This document shows, piece by piece, positions 5,275 through 61,652 of a stretch of 64,000 bases of DNA. How positions within the stretch are numbered: position 1 is the first letter of the stretch; each line of letters opens with the position of its first letter. Location of the stretch: assembly GCF_001677475.2 (NCBI RefSeq), contig NZ_CP015229.1, one strand, 5' to 3'. The stretch is from Escherichia coli (lineage in GTDB: Bacteria; Pseudomonadota; Gammaproteobacteria; Enterobacterales; Enterobacteriaceae). A program made the translations under genes and the position numbers. Below the pieces are notes generated by a model. The model was not told the origin of the DNA and did no database searches. It saw only the letters and a list, made by a program, of their open reading frames with translations.

Positions 5275-6066
5275 TCAGATGCCGACGCTAACCGTCTCCG
5301 GCAGTGTGCTGCCGCCATCAATCACATTCTGTGTACCGGTTAAATAACTTGATTCATCCGATGCGAGGAAGGCTGCCAGTTCGCCGACTTCCAGCGGATC
5401 GGCGAGGCGACGCATCGGGATTGCTTTTGCCATTTCAGTCAGCACCGATTCTGGATCTTCCGGGTTCGACTGGCGGGCAATGCTTTCCGCCATTGGCGTG
5501 CGAACGTATCCCGGGCAGATGGCGTTAACGCGAATACCAGACTGCGCGTACTCCACCGCCAGCGATTTAGTCAGGCCAACAATCGCCGCTTTCGTTAAGG
5601 CGTACGCCGTTTCACCCGGATCGGCCACCATATCGCCAGTGACCGAAGACATCATCACAATGCGACCATCTTTGCGGGCAATCATCTCCGGCAGCACCGC
5701 CTTCGTGACGTTCCATACGCCTTTAATATTGATATCAATATGGAAATCGCGATCTTCATCGCTCATATCGAGGAAACTGCCCAGACGACAAACGCCTGCG
5801 TTATTCACCAGGATATCAATGCGCCCTTCTTTTTCCTTCGCGCGCTTGATAGCTGCGGCTACCGACGCCGGGTCACGCACATCGGCGACAACCGCCGTAC
5901 AGCGATGACCACGACCACACAGTTCGTCCGCCAGTTTTTCGATCTCAGGGGAGATATCCAGCAAGATTAGGTTTGCGCCATGACGCGCAAAAGTTCTGGC
6001 AATTCCTTCGCCAATTCCCTGCAATGCGCCCGTAATCAGTGCTGTCTTGCCCGTGAGTTTACCCAT
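5275..6066 (-). CDS. ucpA: Short-chain dehydrogenase/reductase family oxidoreductase
   Basis: Translation from MGKLTGKTALITGA has the SDR glycine-rich NAD(P)-binding motif; 263 aa matches UcpA. Confidence 0.9.
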   Translation of the reverse strand: MGKLTGKTALITGALQGIGEGIARTFARHGANLILLDISPEIEKLADELCGRGHRCTAVVADVRDPASVAAAIKRAKEKEGRIDILVNNAGVCRLGSFLDMSDEDRDFHIDINIKGVWNVTKAVLPEMIARKDGRIVMMSSVTGDMVADPGETAYALTKAAIVGLTKSLAVEYAQSGIRVNAICPGYVRTPMAESIARQSNPEDPESVLTEMAKAIPMRRLADPLEVGELAAFLASDESSYLTGTQNVIDGGSTLPETVSVGI

Positions 6067-6194
6067 TTTAATGCTCTCCTTGTTAATACAGAGCGTTACA
6101 CTCCATTCCCTCTGAAAATACAGGATAAACAAAATATTGCTGCGGATCAGCTCACTAATTCAGGAAAATCTCAATTCAGTCGCTGCTTTATGCA

Positions 6195-7052
6195 TCATTT
6201 CAGGCGTTGCGTTAGCTCACTGCTGCGCTCAATCATTTTCAATGACTCCACATCATTGAGTTGCACAAGGCCAACAAACAGTAAATCGGTAACAGAATTT
6301 TGCGCCGTGCGGGTGGACATCGACGAGCTGCGCCATTCGGTTTCGCCAGAAACGGTATCGAGGGTGAAATGCGCCAGCCGCCGCAGCGGGGAATCGGTTA
6401 ACGAGGTAATGGCAATCACCGTTGCCCCCTGCTTTCGCGCTGCCTCGGCGCACAGCACAATCTCTTTTTTACTGCCGCTGTAAGAGATAGCGATTTGTAC
6501 ATCGCCTTTTTTTAGCGCCTGGGAAACGGTGGCTTGTACATGTGTGTCGGCTTCGCAGGCCACGCGATAGCCAATTTTCATCAGTTTGAATGAAAGATCG
6601 CGCCCCACCAGCGCCGACCCGCCCAGGCCCGTTATCTGGATAAACGGTGCTTTACTGATGACCTCAATGATTTTTTGCAGCCGCGCGTAGTCGAACAACG
6701 CGCAGGTTTGCTCCAGCGCCAGTTCTTTTTCGCGATTCAGTTTGCGGGCAATCACTTCCAGCGAATCATCACTGGTAATCGAACTGTGCAGGTGCAGCGC
6801 CGTGGCATTCGTTTTCTCCCGGCTGGCACTGTATTCGCCAATTAACGCCATACGCAATTCAGTAAATCCTTGCGCGCCGAGCTTCTGGGCAAACTTCACA
6901 ATACTCGACTGACTGATGCCGAGCTGTTTCGCCATCTTGCGCGAAGAAACGGATTTCAGCTCACTCACGTTGTCCTGCAGAAAGTCAGCAATTTTTTGCT
7001 CGTTCTCGGTAAATTCACTTTCCGCATTGCGTATTTTCGTCAGGTACAACAT
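6195..7052 (-). CDS. murR: RpiR-family transcriptional regulator of MurNAc catabolism
   Basis: Translation from [14 protein letters not shown] (285 aa) matches MurR; divergent from murQP. Confidence 0.9.
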
Positions 7053-7215
7053 CTTCCACTCTCCTGGGCTGGCAGCAAAAATTCCGCTTAAGTTCTTATG
7101 ACGCTCTTCACACTCTGCGAGTGTAGACTCAATGATTCCTTTAAGTCTGTCAATTCGGGATATATGATTCCATACATCTGCAATTATTTGATCGTAAATA
7201 GTAAGGTCACCACCG
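7053..7215. promoter_or_regulatory. murR-murQ divergent promoter/operator region
   Basis: 163-bp region between divergent start codons; holds inverted repeat ACACTC-tgc-GAGTGT at 7110-7124. Confidence 0.45.
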
Positions 7216-8112
7216 ATGCAACTTGAAAAGATGATTACCGAAGGCTCGAACGCCGCCTCGGCTGAAATTGACCGCGTATCAACGCTGGAAATGTGCCGGA
7301 TTATCAACGATGAAGATAAAACCGTGCCGCTTGCCGTTGAGCGCGTACTGCCGGATATCGCCGCAGCGATCGATGTTATCCACGCCCAGGTAAGCGGCGG
7401 CGGGCGTCTGATTTATCTCGGTGCGGGAACATCAGGTCGTCTGGGGATTCTGGATGCCAGCGAATGTCCGCCGACCTACGGCGTGAAACCGGGCCTGGTA
7501 GTTGGTTTGATTGCTGGCGGCGAATATGCTATTCAGCACGCGGTGGAAGGCGCGGAAGATAGCCGGGAAGGTGGTATTAATGATCTGAAAAATATCGGCT
7601 TAACCGCGCAGGATGTGGTGGTTGGTATTGCGGCCAGCGGACGCACGCCGTATGTGATTGCCGGACTGGAATACGCACGCCAGCTTGGCTGCCGCACAGT
7701 GGGAATTTCCTGTAATCCCGGGAGCGCTGTTTCAACTACCGCAGAGTTTGCCATTACGCCGGTAGTTGGGGCCGAAGTGGTCACTGGTTCTTCTCGAATG
7801 AAAGCAGGTACGGCGCAGAAACTGGTGCTCAACATGCTCTCCACCGGGCTGATGATTAAATCCGGCAAAGTGTTCGGCAACCTGATGGTCGATGTGGTCG
7901 CCACCAACGAAAAACTGCATGTGCGCCAGGTCAATATCGTTAAAAACGCCACCGGATGTAATACCGAACAAGCAGAAGCGGCGTTAATTGCCTGCGAACG
8001 CAACTGTAAAACTGCCATTGTGATGGTGCTGAAAAATCTCGATGCCGCAGAAGCTAAAAAACGCCTGGATCAACACGGCGGCTTTATTCGTCAGGTTTTA
8101 GACAAGGAATAA
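7216..8112 (+). CDS. murQ: N-acetylmuramic acid 6-phosphate etherase
   Basis: 298 aa SIS-domain protein matching MurQ. Confidence 0.95.
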
Positions 8113-10714: not shown

Positions 10715-11290
10715 TTAACGCCGCCAGATAATTTTACTGACTTTCCAGTTTTTCAGGGTATCGTCAGAAGGCATTAACCCTTCAGGACCACTCCATTCCC
10801 CGCTGAACTGGTAGCTAATATGTTGACTGCCTTCGGCTTTACATTCGACGGCACGATTATCATCACTGTCGGCCTTTTGGCAATTGCCAAATGCTTTGCT
10901 GTAAAGGTCGCTAAACGGTGTACCGATTTTAACACCGGTGTCAGCAGCAATATCGCTATCCAGCACATCAATGCGGCTGATCGTGCCTTGATCGCCGTTA
11001 ATCACCATCGCCACGTTGTCGCCTTTCATCACTTCAAAAAAGCGCACCACGTTGCCGTTCGCGGTTTTCATTCCGCTGCGCAGGCGATAATCGCCATCAA
11101 GCGCATCGGCAATGGCTTGTTCTTGCAGTGGTGTGGACGCCGTTAATTCACCCACGCCCTGCTCGCTCACTTTGGTGGACGAACCAAACCAGTTCCACGG
11201 GTTAGCGGCAGACCAGTTAACTGACGACATCGTGGAACAGCCGGCCAGCATCAACGGCATAGCGCATAACATTAAACGCAGCGATTTCAT
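10715..11290 (-). CDS. yfeY: Lipoprotein of unknown function
   Basis: 191 aa with lipobox LAGC; matches YfeY. Confidence 0.9.
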   Translation of the reverse strand: MKSLRLMLCAMPLMLAGCSTMSSVNWSAANPWNWFGSSTKVSEQGVGELTASTPLQEQAIADALDGDYRLRSGMKTANGNVVRFFEVMKGDNVAMVINGDQGTISRIDVLDSDIAADTGVKIGTPFSDLYSKAFGNCQKADSDDNRAVECKAEGSQHISYQFSGEWSGPEGLMPSDDTLKNWKVSKIIWRR

Positions 11291-11350: not shown

Positions 11351-11800
11351 TTATTCTTTTTCTTCATTAAAACAAGCGCGTAAACGTCGATTGGTCAGCA
11401 GCCAGATTAACGCCACAATATCCGCCACTACCAGCGCCAGACCGATACCGCTAACGGATTCACCGTTCAGCCACAGCCACGGTTGCCAGCAAAGTAAAAC
11501 CACTTGCGCTAACAGCAACAGAAAATAGAGCCCATGCCAGGTGCGAGGAAACGTAGCCCGCCGACCGCTCAACAAAAACGCCAGCACCGCCGGAATGCCA
11601 GGAATCAGCCCCAGCCAGAAATTATCGTGATCGGGATAAAACAGATTTAGCAGCGCAGTACCCTGCTCGCGCGACGCACCGGCAATGACAAACAGCACCC
11701 AGGTTCGCGCCTGAAGCAATAGCACAAGCCAGAAGAGCAAGGGTAAACGCAGGCGACCGTGCGCATCATAATGGACAGGATGAAACTCAGTACTCTTCAT
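11351..11800 (-). CDS. yfeZ: Inner membrane protein of unknown function
   Basis: 149 aa from [15 protein letters not shown], hydrophobic segments; matches YfeZ. Confidence 0.88.
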
Positions 11801-34917: not shown

Positions 34918-35961
34918 TTAACGGGTGATCCACAACGTGGGCCAGGCGTCTGGCCCATGCCAGTTATCGCAGGTGGGTTCTGCGGCGTAACGCACCAGGC
35001 GAAAACGCTGACCGTCAAAGCGCCAGCGCGCCTGAATGCCACAATCGCTTAATCCGCGCCCTTTCGCTAAGGTCACCAGTTCACGCGATTTCTCATCAAA
35101 TGTTGCGTTCATCAGTTCCAGTTCATTCGTCTCCTGACCGTTGTTGAACGGCAAACGCAACCGAACCGGGCGCGAGGCCAGCGGCTTTTTACGCGACACA
35201 ATCCATGCCAAATCAATGGTGTTATAGGCCCCTGCCTCACAGCTAATCATCATCAGCGCTTTATCATCAGTCAGCGCAGTGACATTCACCTCACGACGCA
35301 ATGGATCAAGCGAGCAGCGCAGACCATTCATCCGCCAGTTTCCATAATCCAGCAAATCGTTGCGTTCTTCGAGTGAGAGTGGCGTCGGCGTTGGGTTAAC
35401 CACCACAACCTCTTTCAGCGCAGGCGCGGGCGGTACGCTGAGCGGCGGTTCGTCCCCTTTCTTGATCCAGGCGGTTTCACTGCCAACGCGCTTTTGCTGA
35501 GCATCAATAAACAACAACGCCGCTTTTAAGCCGCTCAGAGAAATGGTCTGATTGCCGTCGCGTAAGGTGATCGCCTTCCCTTCCTGAATTATCTGCAAAA
35601 ACGCGGTGATGGTTGCCGTATCATCGGTTACTAATAACCATGGTGAAATCCGCCACTTGTCACCACTTAACGCCAACGGCTCACCATCTAACAGCAGCCG
35701 TGGCGCTATCTCCCCTTCAGACGCATCCGGCGACTTCAACCCGCCGCGCTCAATACGTAAAACGGCATCAGTATGCGCCCCGGCGCTGCGGCTCAGGGTC
35801 ATCACCAGTCCATTATGATCGCCCGTATTGCGCGCCACACAAAAATTTTGATTATTACAGGTGACCTGCCAGTCGGAAAACGCCTGTTGCGCTGGTGCCG
35901 CCCACACCAAAGACGTCGGCAACAAAGCGAAAAAAAAGAGAAGGAAAATGCGATAGCGCAT
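34918..35961 (-). CDS. ypfG: DUF1176 family protein with signal peptide, function unknown
   Basis: 347 aa with N-terminal signal sequence (LLFFFALLPTSLVWA); matches YpfG. Confidence 0.88.
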   Translation of the reverse strand: MRYRIFLLFFFALLPTSLVWAAPAQQAFSDWQVTCNNQNFCVARNTGDHNGLVMTLSRSAGAHTDAVLRIERGGLKSPDASEGEIAPRLLLDGEPLALSGDKWRISPWLLVTDDTATITAFLQIIQEGKAITLRDGNQTISLSGLKAALLFIDAQQKRVGSETAWIKKGDEPPLSVPPAPALKEVVVVNPTPTPLSLEERNDLLDYGNWRMNGLRCSLDPLRREVNVTALTDDKALMMISCEAGAYNTIDLAWIVSRKKPLASRPVRLRLPFNNGQETNELELMNATFDEKSRELVTLAKGRGLSDCGIQARWRFDGQRFRLVRYAAEPTCDNWHGPDAWPTLWITR

Positions 35962-44412: not shown

Positions 44413-44787
<375 letters not shown>

Positions 44788-45945: not shown

Positions 45946-46146
45946 ATGGACTGGCTGGCTAAATATTGGTGGATTCTGGTGATTGTCTTTTTGGTAGGCG
46001 TCCTGCTGAACGTGATTAAAGATCTCAAGCGCGTCGACCATAAGAAATTTCTCGCCAACAAGCCGGAGCTTCCCCCGCATCGTGATTTCAACGATAAGTG
46101 GGACGATGACGACGACTGGCCGAAAAAGGATCAACCGAAGAAGTAA
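45946..46146 (+). CDS. ypfN: Small membrane protein (UPF0370)
   Basis: 66 aa from [21 protein letters not shown] with an acidic/basic C-terminal tail; matches YpfN. Confidence 0.85.
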
Positions 46147-46226: not shown

Positions 46227-46925
46227 TTACATCATTTCAATCACATCATCATCGCCAGGCTTACCGCCACTTAGCGCTTCGTCGAAATAATGTTTCGGAA
46301 TGGTATAACGCAAGTGATCCAGGGCAAATTGCATACTGCGATTGTCGATCGCATGGCCTAAATCCTCCACGATATCCAGCGTCACGTCACCACCGGCACT
46401 GATTAACGCTTCCTGCGCCGCAACCGCATGCGCCAGATCGATAACCGGATCTTCACCACCATGAATCAAGTGAATTGTCGTGGCTGTAGACGCGGTTTCC
46501 GGCAGGCTCGCATAGCGTCCGTTAAAGGCAATGACGCGTGAGGCAAGGCCCGGTTCGGCTTTAATGCTCTCCAGCGCCATAATCGCGCCTTGAGAGAAAC
46601 CGATTAACGCCGTGGCGGTAGCCCCTACTCCGCTCTGTTTCTGCCAGTAGCGCACCGTCTCAATAAACGTCGGCATGATGGCATCCACACGCGCCTGGCG
46701 ATTATCTTCCGTAATACCCTGCACCGAAAACCACTGACGCCCCGCCGGATTACCGCTCGGCTCCGCGCCTCCGACACACACCACCAGCGCATCAGGAAAT
46801 AGCGGCGCAAACCAGCTACCTATTTCCCCCATTGCCACCGGGTTATCCCCGACACCGTGGAAAAGCAGTAACAACTGTTGCGCAGGTTTATCCGGGCTTT
46901 GAACAACAAAATGGTCATGTTTCAT
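46227..46925 (-). CDS. ypfH: Alpha/beta-hydrolase esterase
   Basis: 232 aa from MKHDHFVVQSPDKPAQQLLLLFHGVGD; matches YpfH. Confidence 0.88.
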   Translation of the reverse strand: MKHDHFVVQSPDKPAQQLLLLFHGVGDNPVAMGEIGSWFAPLFPDALVVCVGGAEPSGNPAGRQWFSVQGITEDNRQARVDAIMPTFIETVRYWQKQSGVGATATALIGFSQGAIMALESIKAEPGLASRVIAFNGRYASLPETASTATTIHLIHGGEDPVIDLAHAVAAQEALISAGGDVTLDIVEDLGHAIDNRSMQFALDHLRYTIPKHYFDEALSGGKPGDDDVIEMM

Positions 46926-46998
46926 GGCGAACTCCTTAACTGATGTCATTAATTTTACGCCGCTGACTCACAATGACCATGAGATAAAATTGAAGGAG

Positions 46999-49014
46999 TC
47001 AGTGAAAAAAATGCCATTGCGTTATGCGATCGCGCAGACGCTCAGTGCGAACATCATCAAGTGCGAACAGCGCCTGCGCGGCCTCTTCCCGCTGGCGAAC
47101 CAGTAACATCTTGCGGCCTGAAAGTTTAAGTGTGGTACATAACTGCGCGTCACTGGCGTTTTTCTGTAAACGCCCACGCAGCGCCGGTAATGCCAGTTCG
47201 CTGGTTTGTAACAGACGCATTAAGCAACCTAACGACGTTAATAGCGGACGATGAGCGAAAGCAAAACCGGCCAGTTCAAGCCAGTCGTCGTCAGAAAGGA
47301 CGGCATCGTTTAGTGGATCAACAGGGAGCGTTTCGCCATTCCACTGCGCGATAGTTTGCGCATCACGGCGTAAACGAAAATGCTCACGTTCTGCCAATTG
47401 TTTACCCGCTTCGCTAATCGGTAACAACGCCATCGCCGTATAGCAACCGCTGCTGGCTTCGCGATGATTACCCATTCGCACCAGCACAAAACCACAGCGT
47501 TGCCAGAAACGCCATAATTCCTCGGTGTAGCCAAAGCTTACCGAAAGGTAATCGAGGCCAAGCGTATATTGCAAAGCGCTGGCAATGAGCTGTTGCCCAA
47601 CGCCTTCGCCCTGACGCGCCGGATGGACTGCAATCCGGCTGACCCGCCGTCCGCGCAATGTCGCTGCCAGTGGATTGCTGCCGTGCGCCGCCAGCGACTG
47701 GGCCACCAGATTACCCCGAGGGCGACGAAAACCTGCCCATACCGCCTGACTGAGTTGTTGAGATAATCCCCCCTCATCCACCAGCCACAGCGCCCCGGCA
47801 ATCTCGTTTTCGCCAGCCGCCTGTAAAAAATGTTGCCCTGGTGCATCCATCATCCGGCGTAAATCCAGCGGCGAGGTCCGGTAGTGCGCGCCAGACAATA
47901 ATTGATAAACCTTTAACGGCGTTTCTGGCTCGCTTCGCCATAACGTCTGTTCAAATGCGGAAATGACGATATTGCCTTGTGGTGTGTGGGTGAAGTTTTC
48001 ATCGTCAAAAACCAGTGCCTCACTAACCATTTTTTCCAGCGGGCATCCCTGTGCCCAGCGGATCGGCTGTTGCAGTTCAAAACGGTGTAAATGCGGAAAG
48101 TGAGCGCAAAATTTCAGCAAAAAACCACGTCCTGTACCTTCGTAGCCCTGCACCGTAGTGGTTAACAACGTTCGAGGAAAACGCGATACCAGTTGATGCA
48201 ACAACGGCGCAGGTATGGCTGCGGCTTCATCGACCACCAGCCAGTCGGCTTGCTCATCGCTGGCTAACAAGGCATCCGGTGCAATAAAGCGAAACTTCTC
48301 GCCCGCAAATTGTGCCAGTACATCCGTTGCCGCTTTTGCGGGCGCGGTGACAATCGCACTGCCCGCAATACGAGAAATGAGTTGCCCTGCCAACGCCGAT
48401 TTACCGCGCCCACGCGCAGCCGTTACCGCTGCCACGCCCAATGGCATGGTCAGTAGCTGCTGTAAGAGTTGCTGTTGTTCTGGTTGTGGTGTGCCGGTCG
48501 CGGGGTGCCAGTCAGTACGGGGAGTAAAATGCGCCAACGAGAACGGCTGGTTTTGCCGCCAGAGAATAGCGTCGTTATCCGCCGTAAGTACGCGTTTGAG
48601 ATGCTGGACAAAATGCGGCGTCGCAATAGGGTCAGGGCAATCACTCCAGCGCAGCGAGTCGGCATCAGGTTGGTTTTCCCACTCTTCCCATACAGGGAGT
48701 AACAAAACCAGCCAACTTCCCGCTTTCAACGTTCCGCTAAGTGCCGCAAAGGCAGCGGCATCAAAGCCGTGGCGGGCGTCGAATACCGCATGCCGGAACT
48801 CGCGCCCAAGTAAAGTTTGTAGCGCCGAGGGTGAACTGTGGTTTTCAGCATCTGGCTGCGGCGAAATCCACAGCCAGTCGCCAGGTAAGGCATCACGCAA
48901 CTTAAGCGCATGAGCAAAACACCAACCCTCTTCCCCGCTCAACACCAGCAAGCGGCGGATCCCTTCACGTTTCATTTGCGCTGTTAATGTGTGAAGCGCA
49001 GTCAGTTCAGCCAT
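46999..49014 (-). CDS. tmcA: tRNA(Met) cytidine acetyltransferase (helicase-like domain plus GNAT domain)
   Basis: 671 aa matching TmcA (YpfI). Confidence 0.93.
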   Translation of the reverse strand: MAELTALHTLTAQMKREGIRRLLVLSGEEGWCFAHALKLRDALPGDWLWISPQPDAENHSSPSALQTLLGREFRHAVFDARHGFDAAAFAALSGTLKAGSWLVLLLPVWEEWENQPDADSLRWSDCPDPIATPHFVQHLKRVLTADNDAILWRQNQPFSLAHFTPRTDWHPATGTPQPEQQQLLQQLLTMPLGVAAVTAARGRGKSALAGQLISRIAGSAIVTAPAKAATDVLAQFAGEKFRFIAPDALLASDEQADWLVVDEAAAIPAPLLHQLVSRFPRTLLTTTVQGYEGTGRGFLLKFCAHFPHLHRFELQQPIRWAQGCPLEKMVSEALVFDDENFTHTPQGNIVISAFEQTLWRSEPETPLKVYQLLSGAHYRTSPLDLRRMMDAPGQHFLQAAGENEIAGALWLVDEGGLSQQLSQAVWAGFRRPRGNLVAQSLAAHGSNPLAATLRGRRVSRIAVHPARQGEGVGQQLIASALQYTLGLDYLSVSFGYTEELWRFWQRCGFVLVRMGNHREASSGCYTAMALLPISEAGKQLAEREHFRLRRDAQTIAQWNGETLPVDPLNDAVLSDDDWLELAGFAFAHRPLLTSLGCLMRLLQTSELALPALRGRLQKNASDAQLCTTLKLSGRKMLLVRQREEAAQALFALDDVRTERLRDRITQWHFFH

Positions 49015-49028
49015 CCCTGCCCCGGAAG

Positions 49029-49892
49029 TTAAATGCTTTTACCAAAAGTATTGCATTGTGCCGGATCGCCGCTGTCGAAACCACGTTTAAACCAGCTGTA
49101 GCGTTGCTGAGAAGTACCATGAGTGAAACTGTCTGGTACTACTCGCCCCTGACTTTGCTGTTGTAAACGGTCATCGCCGATGGCCTGCGCCGCGTTCAGC
49201 GCCTCTTCCAGATCGCCGGTTTCCAGAACACCTTGCTGCTGCATACTATGCCCCCAGACACCGGCAAAACAGTCGGCCTGGAGTTCCATACGCACAGATA
49301 AGCGGTTCACTTCCGCCTGCGTCGCGTTTTGTTGCAGTTGACGAACTTTCGGCTCGATGCCTAACAGTTTCTGCACATGATGACCGACTTCATGGGCGAT
49401 AACGTACCCCTGGGCAAAATCGCCATCCGCGCCAAGTTTGTCTTTCATGTCATCATAGAAAGAGAGATCGATATAAACCGTGCCATCCGCCGGGCAATAG
49501 AACGGTCCCATAATGGACTGGCCCGCCCCGCAGCCGGTGCGCGTCATTCCACGGTACATGACCAGCTTCGGTTGCTGATAGGTTTTACCCATCTTCTCGA
49601 ATTGCTGTCCCCAGGTGTCTTCCGTGGTTGCCAGAATCACCGAAGTGAATTTTGCGGCTTCGTCTTCATTAGGACTAATTGACCGTGTTGATTGCTGTTG
49701 GGAAACCGGCTGTCCGGTCATCAACCCGGTTAAATCAACGCCATAGTAGCCTGCAACCAGCACGACTATCAGTAAAATCAGCCCGCCTTTACCGCTTGGC
49801 AGGCGAAAACCGGGACCGCCCATAGACGGACCACCAGAGCTGTTGCGCCTGTCTTCAACATTATCACTTTCACGTCGCCCTTGCCAACGCAT
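49029..49892 (-). CDS. ypfJ: Predicted zinc metallopeptidase (HExxH) with N-terminal membrane anchor
   Basis: 287 aa with HEVGH motif at residues 167-171; matches YpfJ. Confidence 0.9.
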
Positions 49893-50006
49893 AGATACCT
49901 CAACAATATATTCATTATAGAAATGATCGTAGGTGGTTCAGAGGAAGATTACCACAGGAAAGCGGGATGAAATGGCGGAGGAATGAGCGTTCAATGCACA
50001 TCTTCC

Positions 50007-50033
50007 GAGAGCGGTTGTCTTGCCGTGCCAGCT
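50007..50033. other. Perfect 11-bp-stem hairpin just downstream of purC
   Basis: tcttgccgtgc-cagct-gcacggcaaga; no U-run follows on the minus strand, so not a canonical intrinsic terminator. Confidence 0.5.
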
Positions 50034-50059
50034 GCACGGCAAGATGATGAACAGAAAAA

Positions 50060-52020: not shown

Positions 52021-52036
52021 CAAATCTCCCTAAACT

Positions 52037-60071: not shown

Positions 60072-61652
60072 ATGAGTTATTCTGTGATGTTCGCTTTACT
60101 CCTGCTCACGCCGCTACTTTTTTCGCTGCTCTGTTTTGCCTGCCGGAAACGGGGACACTCTGCGACTCGCACGGTGACAGTACTACATGGCTTAGGGATC
60201 ACACTGCTGCTGATTCTGGCACTGTGGGTGGTCCAAACCGCCGCTGATGCGGGAGAAATATTCGCTGCGGGACTGTGGCTTCACATTGATGGCCTGGGCG
60301 GTTTGTTCCTCGCCATTCTTGGTGTGATTGGCTTTCTCACCGGTGTTTACTCGATTGGCTACATGCGTCATGAAGTGGCACACGGCGAGCTTTCACCCGT
60401 TACGCTGTGCGATTACTACGGTTTCTTCCATCTGTTTTTGTTCACCATGCTGCTGGTTGTTACCAGCAATAACCTGATTGTGATGTGGGCGGCAATCGAA
60501 GCCACCACCTTAAGCTCGGCGTTTCTGGTAGGCATTTACGGTCAGCGTTCATCGCTGGAAGCTGCATGGAAGTACATCATTATTTGTACTGTTGGTGTCG
60601 CTTTTGGTCTGTTCGGTACCGTGCTGGTATACGCCAACGCCGCCAGCGTTATGCCGCAGGCAGAAATGGCGATATTCTGGAGCGAGGTTCTTAAGCAATC
60701 GTCCTTGCTTGACCCAACATTAATGCTGTTGGCCTTTGTGTTTGTGCTAATTGGCTTTGGCACCAAAACCGGGCTTTTTCCCATGCACGCCTGGCTGCCG
60801 GATGCTCACAGTGAAGCGCCGAGTCCGGTCAGCGCCCTGCTCTCCGCCGTATTGCTGAACTGCGCGCTGTTGGTGCTTATTCGCTATTACATCATTATTT
60901 GCCAGGCCATCGGCAGCGATTTCCCCAACCGGTTGTTGCTCATCTTCGGCATGTTGTCGGTTGCCGTGGCGGCATTTTTCATTCTGGTACAGCGGGACAT
61001 TAAGCGTCTGCTGGCGTACTCCAGCGTGGAGAACATGGGACTGGTCGCGGTGGCGATAGGCATTGGCGGGCCGCTGGGAATTTTTGCCGCGCTGCTGCAC
61101 ACCTTAAACCACAGTCTGGCAAAAACGCTGTTGTTCTGCGGTTCCGGCAATGTACTGCTCAAGTACGGCACGCGCGATCTCAACGTCGTCTGTGGGATGC
61201 TCAAAATCATGCCATTTACCGCCGTGTTGTTTGGCGGCGGTGCGCTGGCGCTGGCCGGGATGCCGCCCTTCAACATTTTTCTTAGCGAATTTATGACCGT
61301 TACCGCCGGACTGGCGCGTAATCATCTGCTGCTTATCGTCCTGCTGTTATTGCTGTTAACGCTGGTGCTGGCGGGCCTGGTACGGATGGCTGCGCGGGTG
61401 TTAATGGCGAAACCGCCGCAGGCCGTTAACCGGGGTGAACTTGGCTGGTTGACCACCTCGCCAATGGTGATTCTGCTGGTCATGATGCTGGCGATGGGAA
61501 CGCATATTCCACAACCTGTCATCAGGATCCTGGCTGGCGCTTCCACTATAGTCCTCTCAGGGACGCACGACCTGCCTGCACAACGTAGCACCTGGCATGA
61601 TTTTTTGCCTTCAGGCACCGCATCTGTTTCGGAGAAACACAGTGAACGTTAA
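60072..61652 (+). CDS. hyfF: Hydrogenase 4 membrane subunit (NuoN/antiporter-like)
   Basis: 526 aa matching HyfF. Confidence 0.93.

Follow-up and report, generated by a model that had tools for sequence, protein, structure and literature searches.

Introduction

What does YpfJ do, on which side of the inner membrane does it do it, and does it act together with the products of neighboring genes? These questions are raised by a gene whose product carries an HExxH zinc-peptidase motif behind a hydrophobic anchor, and which an earlier inspection of the DNA letters (hereafter the sequence-only reading) placed in a cluster of poorly characterized genes of the window, i.e., the whole 64-kb stretch of Escherichia coli DNA analyzed here. 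Very probably, YpfJ is a zinc metalloendopeptidase of the PF04228/NF050010 family, fixed in the inner membrane by one anchor, with a periplasmic domain and a housekeeping role. It ranks among the most widely conserved bacterial envelope metalloproteases, with about 50% identity across phyla. The gene, its motif, its family and the in vitro activity of its orthologue are all already on record, and the HExxH motif as originally reported adds nothing new. As far as we are aware, the new element is the co-evolution of a conserved N-terminal peptide with the catalytic domain, a concrete and cheaply testable anomaly in an otherwise ordinary finding.

The ypfJ Gene and Its Family

The coding sequence of ypfJ lies on the minus strand at positions 49029-49892, stop codon included, and encodes 287 amino acids. 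Its ATG is preceded, 5 nt upstream, by a GAGG ribosome-binding site (49898-49901, minus strand), and the gene shares 99.4% DNA identity with its RefSeq counterpart in E. coli, whose annotation reads "KPN_02809 family neutral zinc metallopeptidase". The Pfam profile PF04228 (Zn_peptidase) matches residues 1-283 over profile positions 1-290 (E = 8e-150; 498.6 bits against a cut-off of 23.2), and the equivalog model NF050010 (Zn_HExGHH_YpfJ) scores 380.2 bits against a cut-off of 250. The sequence-only reading had itself regarded the protein as not novel in sequence, and these full-length matches bear it out. At E ≤ 1e-3, matches number 10,385 clusters (50% identity), spread over many phyla. A search of the whole window against Rfam returned zero matches.

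Catalytic Motif and Probable Zinc Site

The motif HEVGH was correctly located at residues 167-171, exactly positions 49380-49394 of the window on the minus strand. With the histidine that follows, it forms HEVGHH (residues 167-172; 49377-49394, minus strand) on helix 158-176 of the structural model, H172 being the family-specific additional histidine of the HExGHH signature. All 86 homologues examined, which share 38-93% identity with YpfJ, have H171; H167 is present in 85 of them, E168 and G170 in 84 each, and H172 in 82. H167 and H171 would serve as zinc ligands and E168 as the catalytic base.

A second signature, ExxxD, is provided by E203-L-Q-A-D207 (49272-49286, minus strand) on helix 192-219, with E203 conserved in 84 and D207 in 85 of the 86 homologues. 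In the model, E203 sits on this later helix, 32 residues past H171. Conservation and modelling together point to E203 as the probable third zinc ligand and to D207 as its partner, in an arrangement of the thermolysin/neprilysin type. According to the mechanism that we propose, H167, H171 and E203 would hold one zinc ion and E168 would act as general base. Y163 and R264 are invariant and H258 nearly so, which makes them candidates for substrate binding or transition-state stabilization. G129, F131 and Y132 are also invariant in YpfJ homologues.

Predicted Fold and Distant Relatives

Structure prediction and fold comparison, which the sequence-only reading had put forward as a check, suggest a gluzincin-type fold. 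The AlphaFold2 model of YpfJ (mean pLDDT 87, pTM 0.85) contains the elements of a zincin catalytic fold, namely a backing helix, a mixed sheet, an active-site helix and a glutamate-bearing helix. Its best fold matches are neprilysin, PepO, thermolysin, LasB and BepA; a Foldseek search with the model gave no significant match, and sequence and profile searches of the PDB found no solved structure in the YpfJ family. The catalytic domain (residues ~74-287) is predicted to adopt a thermolysin/neprilysin-like gluzincin fold, and YpfJ would be a relative of these enzymes in fold while standing outside their families. Indeed, its sequence identity to thermolysin (M4) and to neprilysin, PepO, ECE-1 and Zmp1 (M13) is just 10-12%, and the Pfam models of M4 and M13 do not match it. 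YpfJ is also far smaller, with a domain of ~215 residues, and, unlike M4 and M13 enzymes, possesses the additional histidine of HExGHH, two family-specific cysteine pairs and a module made of an N-terminal peptide and an anchor.

Among M48 peptidases, the catalytic domain of HtpX is cytoplasmic and flanked by transmembrane helices, and BepA is a soluble protein with a signal peptide; the membrane architecture of YpfJ resembles neither. The M48 family, which includes HtpX, BepA/YfgC, Ste24 and Geobacter 3C37, served as modelling template in a 2012 paper, and with the minigluzincins it is among the known systems nearest to YpfJ. Membership of YpfJ in M48 was rejected, as the PF01435 profile does not match YpfJ at E ≤ 0.1.

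A remote relative, detectable at the profile level, is FP0506 of Flavobacterium psychrophilum, a cell-surface lipoprotein with an HExxH motif that degrades elastin (PMC6414381). Its best Pfam match by HHpred is PF04228 (1.8e-19), followed by M48 (PMC6414381). In this virulence-associated protein of a single lineage, a lipoprotein signal replaces the N-terminal peptide and anchor of YpfJ. FP0506 shows that real extracytoplasmic proteases exist among the remote relatives of PF04228. A "putative neutral zinc metallopeptidase" detected at the surface of Streptococcus suis by shaving was set aside, because PF04298 bears the identical description and family membership of this protein is uncertain.

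Anchor, Cysteines and Topology

The N-terminal hydrophobic anchor announced by the sequence-only reading was confirmed ahead of the HExxH motif at residues ~36-58 (49719-49787, minus strand), the most hydrophobic 19-residue stretch of the protein being residues 36-54 (Kyte-Doolittle 2.05). Across 303 homologues, lysine and arginine number 2.8 in the 15 residues before the anchor and 0.49 after it, and the bias toward the N-terminal side holds in 272 of them. A lone hydrophobic segment preceded by positive charges, as found in YpfJ, is what a type II (N-in, C-out) membrane protein should have. The uncharged stretch holding the hydrophobic core has a median length of 17 residues and is longer in many homologues. 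In most homologues, no second segment has the length needed to cross the membrane. Glycine-rich anchors occur in some homologues; that of E. coli is strongly hydrophobic.

Two pairs of cysteines probably form disulfides. The first would link C121 and C133 (49494-49532, minus strand), which flank the invariant G129-P-F-Y-C-P hairpin and are replaced together: alignment A1 contains 85 sequences with both cysteines, one with two serines and none with a single cysteine. The second would join C208 (49269-49271) to C280 (49053-49055; overall 49053-49271, minus strand); no other two positions of YpfJ covary as strongly. Both cysteines are present in 67 sequences, neither in 19, and a single one in none. 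Phe/Gly takes the place of the pair in all nine loci without it; such loci are found in Bacteroidota (L057, L061, L062, L065, L078 and L080), Planctomycetota (L060) and Calditrichia (L081). A second zinc site made of the four cysteines was considered and discarded, as the two pairs are lost independently and the measured zinc content is close to one per molecule (PMC3269727).

Some homologues have something else in the position of the N-terminal peptide and anchor: P0217 a Sec signal peptide, P0254 a lipobox, and P0247 a signal peptide accompanied by a caspase-like domain. Taken together, the covariation of paired cysteines, the charge bias around the anchor and the existence of signal-peptide homologues argue for a periplasmic location of the catalytic domain. 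The N-terminus of YpfJ would then be cytoplasmic, and a flexible linker would connect the membrane anchor to the catalytic domain, which the C121-C133 and C208-C280 disulfides would stabilize in the periplasm.

Co-evolution of the N-Terminal Peptide with the Catalytic Domain

One set of observations conflicts with this simple type II topology. The first 17 residues of YpfJ (49842-49892, minus strand) form a conserved peptide with the consensus MRWxxxRxSxNVEDRRG, in which S9, N11, D14 and R16 are kept in 75, 67, 78 and 75 of 86 homologues, respectively. The motif is found in Proteobacteria, Cyanobacteria, Bacteroidota, Planctomycetota, Nitrospira and Calditrichia, and is always accompanied by a hydrophobic segment flanked by flexible linkers. 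AlphaFold2 docks the peptide onto helix 74-100 of the catalytic domain, gives it a pLDDT of 97 (residues 1-10) and 90 (residues 11-20) and predicts a β-strand at residues 12-15, whereas pLDDT falls below 50 for the hydrophobic segment (residues 34-49).

Covariation, an analysis independent of AlphaFold2, points to the same helix. The N-terminal peptide covaries with residues 78-92, 138 and 169, and in particular with the 78/81/85/88/92 face of helix 74-100 (49593-49673, minus strand), the backing helix that opens the catalytic domain in the model. Coupling of T90 and E91 with V169 indicates that this helix packs against the active-site helix. By APC-corrected mutual information, the pairs 7-88, 7-92, 11-91, 6-85, 3-85 and 8-81 are found at ranks 2-16, next after C208-C280 and thus among the strongest couplings of the protein. 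Of 89 pairs above 4 SD, 24 join residues 2-16 to the domain, where 8% would be expected, and equally variable positions elsewhere in the domain lack such coupling.

The covariation includes exchanges of charge. Residues 8 and 81 bear opposite charges in 75 sequences and the same charge in 2 (34 and 32 expected), and mapping onto a tree of residues 100-287 shows that the pair reversed independently at least 15 times. For residues 7 and 92, opposite charges outnumber same charges 133 to 5, with 6 reversals. Neither statistic was reached in any of 5000 permutations. A direct illustration is provided by Providencia, which has R8 and D81 where E. coli and Yersinia have E8 and K81.

Two other causes were examined. 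The signal survived three tests for a phylogenetic artefact: it persists in the subset with the canonical motif, is specific relative to equally variable positions and involves repeated independent reversals. Topogenic charge balance was ruled out as the origin of the 8-81 covariation because the change from E8/K81 to R8/D81 alters the charge difference across the segment. Comparing homologues without the N-terminal peptide for relaxed contact residues yielded nothing informative. A peptide predicted to be cytoplasmic is coupled, in sequence and in the model, to a domain predicted to be periplasmic.

One way out is that YpfJ is not a simple type II protein and that its N-terminal peptide lies docked along helix 74-100, contributing an additional β-strand, where it would be part of the structure or act as a regulatory plug on a tether. 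Such docking would require an anchor that does not span the membrane in the functional state (re-entrant or released), an obligatory contact made before export and broken by translocation, or a tail that crosses the bilayer by an unknown route. We regard this reading as rather unlikely, albeit one supported by the high pLDDT of residues 1-20 against that of the poorly predicted anchor, by the couplings and charge swaps described above, and by the strict association of the peptide with a linker-flanked hydrophobic segment.

Several lines of evidence oppose it. An N-in, C-out span is favored by the distribution of K/R around the anchor, by the pairing of the cysteines and by homologues with signal peptides, and an uncharged stretch with a median of 17 residues suits a span better than a half-depth re-entrant helix. 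Homologues without the peptide retain every catalytic residue. The tail would be hard to move across the bilayer, because its 35 residues include 7 K/R and 4 D/E. In addition, the full-length Klebsiella orthologue is active on casein, hence the N-terminal peptide cannot be a tight inhibitor.

Known membrane layouts offer little help. Tat export depends on a motif, S/T-R-R-x-F-L-K, placed directly before the hydrophobic region; in YpfJ, N-S-S-G-G comes directly after R15-R16, the distance from the arginine pair to the hydrophobic core is 21 residues, and the family consensus around the twin arginines is E-D-R-R-G-x-x-G. The consensus context is absent and a Tat route was rejected. In signal-anchor-release (SAR) endolysins, a Gly/Ala-rich N-terminal signal anchor tethers the periplasmic enzyme, then exits the bilayer and packs onto the enzyme, whereas in the leader peptidase of E. 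coli a two-helix hairpin leaves the N-terminus on the periplasmic side, together with the large catalytic domain. With either layout, the N-terminal segment could touch the periplasmic domain. A SAR domain was nevertheless rejected, as SAR endolysin tails are a few residues long while that of YpfJ has 35 residues and 11 charges, and its anchor is strongly hydrophobic. A hairpin like that of leader peptidase was also rejected: the additional amphipathic stretch of one subgroup is 10-16 residues long, contains Arg/Lys and is absent from E. coli.

A native, salt-bridged contact of the N-terminal peptide with the backing helix and sheet, despite the hydrophobic membrane segment between them, is put forward as a tentative proposal, which covariation and modelling suggest and which we consider more doubtful than probable. 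If it existed, either the anchor would not span the membrane or could be released from it, or export would operate a switch, with translocation stripping the tethered peptide from the enzyme. Each would be a previously undescribed control of a bacterial envelope protease. Were the contact real in vivo, either the textbook topology prediction for the family would be wrong, or periplasmic proteases would be subject to a new, tether-based control.

Proteolytic Activity and Probable Physiological Role

Returning to the reading of YpfJ as a periplasmic zinc endopeptidase with a single membrane-spanning anchor, direct evidence of activity comes from KPN_02809, its orthologue in Klebsiella pneumoniae MGH 78578 (82% identity over the full length; P0119). 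Both proteins have HExGHH, four cysteines, the N-terminal peptide and the anchor. KPN_02809 is also the protein after which NF050010 is named.

Purified KPN_02809 hydrolyses casein, binds 1.2 Zn per molecule, is inhibited by EDTA, 1,10-phenanthroline and DTT, and loses its activity upon the HExxH substitutions H171S and E172D (PMC3269727). These assays used a cytoplasmic GST fusion extracted with 1% Triton X-100 and casein as sole substrate, on which activity was ~20% of that of trypsin and ~40% of that of another Klebsiella zinc protease (PMC3269727). In Yersinia pestis, an insertion in ypfJ had no effect in the single targeted test (PMC8407435), and ypfJ came up as a hit when the ASKA collection was screened for HOCl resistance (PMC8228696). 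Literature on ypfJ, KPN_02809, PF04228 and Rv2575 consists of biochemistry, this one null genetic test and screen lists, with no physiological substrate or clear phenotype; the identifiers b2475, P64429, STM2487 and YPO3058 retrieved no relevant literature. The view of ypfJ as a gene with little functional characterization is partly countered by the zinc-dependent caseinolysis of KPN_02809. Most likely, YpfJ would be a housekeeping protease of broad specificity whose targets are polypeptides in the periplasm or close to the membrane.

Alternatively, the HExxH domain could hydrolyse something other than protein, such as peptidoglycan peptides, lipoprotein or lipid amides, or RNA (cf. YbeY), casein cleavage being a side activity. 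The modest rate on casein, the only demonstrated substrate, and the lack of an in vivo protease phenotype would fit this idea, which we hold to be quite improbable given that the best fold matches are endopeptidases, that HExxH combined with ExxxD is typical of peptide-bond hydrolases, and that HExxH mutants lose the casein activity.

Gene Neighborhood

The run of genes in which ypfJ was said to lie dissolved on inspection. All eight are present, although scattered over 39 kb (10715-49892) and interspersed with over 25 unrelated genes, including ypeA, amiA, hemF, the whole eut operon, maeB, tal, tkt, nudK, aegA, narQ, acrD and dapE; the "cluster" amounts to y-genes picked from different places. 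Besides ypfJ, it comprises yfeY (10715-11290; DUF1131 in Pfam), yfeZ (11351-11800; DUF2919), ypfG (34918-35961; DUF1176), yffB (44431-44787; ArsC family), ypfN (45946-46146; UPF0370), ypfH (46227-46925) and tmcA (46999-49014), which adjoins ypfJ. The view that these genes have little functional characterization stands for ypfG, yfeY, yfeZ, ypfN and yffB, which belong to Pfam families of unknown function, but fails for two others: tmcA, whose Pfam domains were found, encodes the well-characterized tRNA(Met) C34 acetyltransferase, and ypfH matches Abhydrolase_2 (1.8e-58; Phospholipase/Carboxylesterase family) and is annotated as "esterase" in RefSeq. A β-lactam-resistance phenotype has been reported for ypfN (PMC12024506).

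Only ypfJ, tmcA and ypfH are direct neighbors that share a strand. A 14-nt spacer (49015-49028, minus strand) runs from the ypfJ stop to the start of tmcA, no terminator-like site was found in this interval, and co-transcription of ypfJ and tmcA is likely. A "dapA-ypfJ operon" has also been described from long-read transcripts (bioRxiv 10.1101/262964).

Conservation of this neighborhood was surveyed at 80 ypfJ loci drawn from a scan of ~100,000 species genomes. The purC-ypfJ-tmcA arrangement occurs at 15 loci, all in Enterobacterales, and at 0 of the 65 others, which belong to Aeromonas, Pasteurellaceae, β- and α-proteobacteria, Cyanobacteria, Bacteroidota and other groups. Within 6 kb of ypfJ, these 65 loci contain no homologue of TmcA, YpfH, PurC, BamC or DapA, and outside Enterobacterales no neighbor family is common beyond single lineages. 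The largest apparent neighbor cluster turned out to be an antisense open reading frame of ypfJ itself in GC-rich genomes. Even in Yersinia, Providencia, Acerihabitans and Rahnella, ypfJ and tmcA are ~0.5-1.4 kb apart.

The proposal that the eight genes act together as a functional cluster would find its best argument in the same-strand adjacency of ypfJ, tmcA and ypfH, with its short ypfJ-tmcA gap, and in the retention of this adjacency at the 15 Enterobacterales loci. The survey refutes a conserved functional unit around ypfJ; moreover, the set is interrupted by the eut operon and other genes, the short gap is lost in four genera, and TmcA has its tRNA substrate in the cytoplasm, across the membrane from the predicted location of the YpfJ domain in the periplasm. 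A functional cluster is accordingly very improbable.

Finally, HEVGH could have arisen by chance in a membrane protein that is not an enzyme, and the HEVAH of hyfF elsewhere in the window offers a precedent. This reading is refuted beyond reasonable doubt by near-invariance of the motif in homologues down to 38% identity, the full-length match to a curated peptidase family, the gluzincin fold of the model and the inactive orthologue mutants. Among the 32 mapped annotated genes of the window, only ypfJ and hyfF, which encodes a membrane subunit, contain HExxH, and the number expected in YpfJ from its own composition is 0.004.

YpfJ as a probable zinc metallopeptidase

The pentapeptide HEVGH occupies residues 167-171 of YpfJ (49380-49394, minus strand), exactly where the sequence-only reading had placed an HExxH zinc-peptidase motif, in an ORF of 287 aa (49029-49892, minus strand) annotated in RefSeq as "KPN_02809 family neutral zinc metallopeptidase". 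By itself such a pentapeptide is weak evidence, because HyfF, a hydrogenase-4 membrane subunit, carries HEVAH at residues 100-104 (60369-60383, plus strand), the only other HExxH among the annotated genes of the window and probably a chance occurrence. The motif of YpfJ, expected 0.004 times by chance from its composition, is more than that, given the family match, its conservation, an accompanying ExxxD and the mutants of an orthologue. YpfJ is a full-length match to Pfam PF04228 (E=8e-150) and, at 380 bits (cut-off 250), to the NCBIfam equivalog NF050010 ("Zn_HExGHH_YpfJ"). Across an alignment of 86 homologues with identity down to 38%, H167 is kept in 85, E168 and G170 in 84 each, H171 in all and H172 in 82; E203 (84/86) and D207 (85/86) form the ExxxD, 32 residues past H171 and in the long helix that follows in the structural model. 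H167, H171 and E203 would bind zinc, E168 would be the base that activates water, and Y163, H258 and R264, invariant or nearly so, may help substrate binding or catalysis.

Fold matches place YpfJ near neprilysin (M13, 10.3), PepO (M13, 10.2 and 9.9), thermolysin (M4, 9.6), Zmp1 of Mycobacterium tuberculosis (M13, 9.6), BepA of E. coli (M48, 9.3), LasB (M4, 8.8) and 3C37 (M48, 8.4), at sequence identities of about 10-16%. As modelled, YpfJ is a gluzincin sharing with thermolysin and neprilysin the HExxH plus ExxxD type of zinc site in its predicted ligands. It is a separate family, outside M4, M13 and M48, and the M48 profile PF01435 gives no match to it.

This family is already catalogued, with a biochemically characterised orthologue. 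The ypfJ of Klebsiella pneumoniae MGH 78578 (KPN_02809), whose homologue cluster, represented by P0119, is 82% identical to the YpfJ studied here, was cloned and purified as a GST fusion (Wong et al., 2012; PMC3269727). Its cleavage of succinylated casein is optimal at 30 °C and pH 8. It holds 1.2 Zn per molecule and is inhibited by EDTA, 1,10-phenanthroline and DTT; the H171S mutant is almost inactive and E172D loses a significant part of the activity, so that zinc-dependent proteolysis relying on the HExxH residues is established for this orthologue (PMC3269727). Elsewhere, a ypfJ insertion in Yersinia pestis, one of a set of candidate membrane proteases tested there, left psaA expression unchanged (PMC8407435), ypfJ scored for HOCl resistance when overexpressed from the ASKA collection (PMC8228696), and the gene otherwise figures in a co-expression list, as a flanking marker and as a qPCR target. 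A remote relative is FP0506, the elastinase of Flavobacterium psychrophilum, whose best profile match is PF04228 (PMC6414381). The sequence-only reading of ypfJ as a little-characterised peptidase is thus partly supported: the activity is on record for an orthologue, and the literature searched assigns YpfJ no physiological substrate.

Membrane topology and cysteine pairs

The membrane anchor proposed for YpfJ is confirmed by a hydrophobicity maximum at residues 36-54 (Kyte-Doolittle 2.05, 19-residue windows). Among 303 homologues, Lys and Arg average 2.8 in the 15 residues before the hydrophobic segment and 0.49 in the 15 after it, and the N-side count exceeds the C-side count in 272. Four cysteines of the catalytic domain behave as two pairs in the 86-sequence alignment: C121/C133 is Cys-Cys in 85 and Ser-Ser in one, while C208/C280, the top covarying pair of the protein, is Cys-Cys in 67, absent in 19 and never single. 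C208-C280 is missing from nine of 80 genome loci, all from Bacteroidota, Planctomycetota or Calditrichia, with Phe/Gly instead (among them loci L057, L060, L061, L062, L065, L078, L080 and L081, with ypfJ at about 6001-6860 in most). Every locus from these three groups shows the replacement, and C121-C133 is retained there. The loss of this one putative disulfide is specific to those lineages. A Cys4 metal site was considered and rejected: each pair can be lost without the other, and the zinc content found for KPN_02809 is about one per molecule (PMC3269727), which argues for two disulfides, a reading that the DTT inhibition of KPN_02809 fits. Additional cysteines in other family members are mostly paired.

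Some close homologues dispense with the N-terminal peptide (residues 1-17) and anchor, P0217 carrying a Sec signal peptide in their place and P0254 (473 aa) the lipobox LGGC. P0254, the representative of a metagenome or genome cluster, has Arg and Leu at the positions of H167 and E168 in a domain that is otherwise conserved, its four cysteines included, and is probably a pseudo-protease with no catalytic activity. P0247 (597 aa) has instead a signal peptide, then a caspase-like region (ALVIGNGAY..., called by sequence reading and not by profile), then a C-terminal YpfJ catalytic domain at residues 369-594, and seems to be secreted and to combine two protease domains.

Three independent signals, the charge bias, the cysteine pairs and the signal-peptide homologues, agree in pointing to an N-in, C-out orientation. 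The best-supported reading of these sequence features is a periplasmic protease domain, stabilised by two putative disulfides and anchored in the inner membrane, to which a flexible Gln/Ser/Pro linker would tether it; there YpfJ may trim or degrade envelope polypeptides. The N-terminal peptide would then be cytoplasmic.

Covariation of the N-terminal peptide with the catalytic domain

Residues 1-17 (49842-49892, minus strand) rank with the best-conserved stretches of the family, their consensus MRWxxxRxSxNVEDRRG spanning Proteobacteria, Cyanobacteria, Bacteroidota, Planctomycetota and Calditrichia. AlphaFold2 gives pLDDT 97 for residues 1-10 and 90 for 11-20, with a beta-strand at 12-15, and below 50 for the hydrophobic segment; the confidence and the strand mean that the model docks the peptide on the domain.

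As a test of this contact independent of the model, mutual information with APC correction was computed from 181 non-redundant full-length homologues (effective number 111). Behind C208-C280, the top pairs are R7-A88, R7-D92, N11-E91, R6-V85, W3-V85, N11-T90, E13-T138 and E8-K81, and N11 also pairs with V169, within HEVGH. Of 89 pairs above 4 SD, 24 join residues 2-16 to the domain, against 8% expected. The targets 78, 81, 85, 88 and 92 lie on one face of the first helix of the catalytic domain (residues 74-100; 49593-49673, minus strand), and equally variable domain positions elsewhere show no coupling. The signal holds in the subset of 111 sequences with a canonical N[VI]EDxR motif. Residues 8 and 81 bear opposite charges in 75 sequences and like charges in 2 (34 and 32 expected), with at least 15 independent reversals on a neighbour-joining tree built from residues 100-287 alone; residues 7 and 92 do so in 133 and 5, with 6 reversals. 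None of 5000 permutations reached either value. The E8/K81 of E. coli and Yersinia corresponds to R8/D81 in Providencia, also of the Enterobacterales. At the other pair, Haemophilus carries E7/K92 in place of the R7/D92 of the others. Topogenic charge balance was rejected as a source of the 8-81 covariation, because the swap alters the charge difference across the segment rather than preserving it.

This is the pattern that a direct, salt-bridged contact between the peptide and helix 74-100 would give, and it contradicts a simple single-span topology: because a contact across the membrane is impossible, that topology must be incomplete somewhere. Full-length KPN_02809 is active (PMC3269727) and homologues without the peptide retain every catalytic residue, so the peptide is not a tight inhibitor, and folding does not require it.

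Among five ways out of this conflict that were considered, docking of the peptide on the domain in an obligatory pre-export state meets no contradicting sequence evidence, and we know of no precedent for it. A re-entrant or peripheral anchor sits poorly with an uncharged stretch that has a median of 17 residues around the hydrophobic core and is longer in many homologues, with a C-terminal flank free of Lys and Arg, and with the disulfide evidence. Release of the anchor in the manner of SAR sequences was rejected on a tail of 35 residues with 11 charges, and Tat export of a folded, plugged enzyme on an Arg-Arg lying 21 residues from the hydrophobic core in the wrong context. A Lep-like hairpin was rejected because the second hydrophobic stretch is found only in a subgroup and is short and charged. 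No description of co-evolution between peptide and domain was found in the literature searched.

Genomic context of ypfJ

The eight genes that the sequence-only reading had grouped as a poorly characterised cluster all lie in the window, scattered among others: yfeY (10715-11290, DUF1131), yfeZ (11351-11800, DUF2919), ypfG (34918-35961, DUF1176), yffB (44431-44787, ArsC family), ypfN (45946-46146, UPF0370), ypfH (46227-46925, Phospholipase/Carboxylesterase family; esterase in RefSeq), tmcA (46999-49014) and ypfJ. Between them stand ypeA, amiA, hemF, the 17-gene eut operon, maeB, tal, tkt, nudK, aegA, narQ, acrD and dapE, and as a unit the cluster does not exist. Poor characterisation holds for YpfG, YfeY, YfeZ, YpfN and YffB, members of function-unknown families (a beta-lactam-resistance phenotype is reported for YpfN; PMC12024506), but not for TmcA, which is known to install N4-acetylcytidine on elongator tRNA(Met) at position 34.

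Neighbourhoods were surveyed at 80 ypfJ loci from a one-genome-per-species collection of about 100,000 species. The order purC-ypfJ-tmcA(-ypfH) is present at 15 Enterobacterales loci; at the 65 others, from Aeromonas, Pasteurellaceae, other Proteobacteria, Cyanobacteria, Bacteroidota, Planctomycetota, Nitrospirota and Calditrichia, no homologue of TmcA, YpfH, PurC, BamC or DapA occurs within 6 kb. Beyond single lineages, the loci have no other neighbour family in common. The gene behaves as a stand-alone one, and its neighbours are uninformative on function. An ORF antisense to ypfJ, up to 523 aa long in GC-rich genomes (as at 5767-7338, minus strand, of locus L015), clustered as a "conserved neighbour" in 22 loci and was rejected as an artefact of stop-codon-poor antisense frames; a small version of 101 aa lies in the window (49377-49682, plus strand).

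Within E. coli, a GAGG ribosome-binding site lies 5 nt ahead of ypfJ, and the gap between the ypfJ stop codon and the tmcA start is only 14 nt. Condition-dependent read-through of a terminator at the dapA-bamC junction (52021-52036), with a riboswitch-like structure in control, has been reported to yield transcripts reaching ypfJ, named the "dapA-ypfJ operon" (preprint, bioRxiv 10.1101/262964). Rfam at gathering thresholds gave no match within the whole window. The 170-nt purC-ypfJ intergenic region (folding z-score -2.8) contains, 16 nt past the purC stop codon, a perfect 11-bp GC-rich hairpin, UCUUGCCGUGC-AGCUG-GCACGGCAAGA (50018-50044, minus strand), which has no U-tract and was not called in the terminator scan; it might stabilise the 3' end of purC or act ahead of ypfJ as a partial terminator. 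The longest ypfH ORF starts at 46949 (240 aa), against 46925 in RefSeq (232 aa, MKHDHFVV...).

The window is E. coli chromosomal DNA: of 5,426 complete genomes of the species, 5,425 match a 5-kb query around ypfJ at 95-99% identity, and gene by gene the window is 95.6-100% identical to one RefSeq strain. Identity to the reference E. coli is 95.9% for tmcA, 96.0% for amiA and 95.6% for hemF, and 99.4-100% for ypfJ, purC, bamC, dapA and bcp, an unevenness that points to mosaic recombination or to a tmcA that evolves faster. Across Enterobacterales, TmcA protein identity drops much faster than that of YpfJ.
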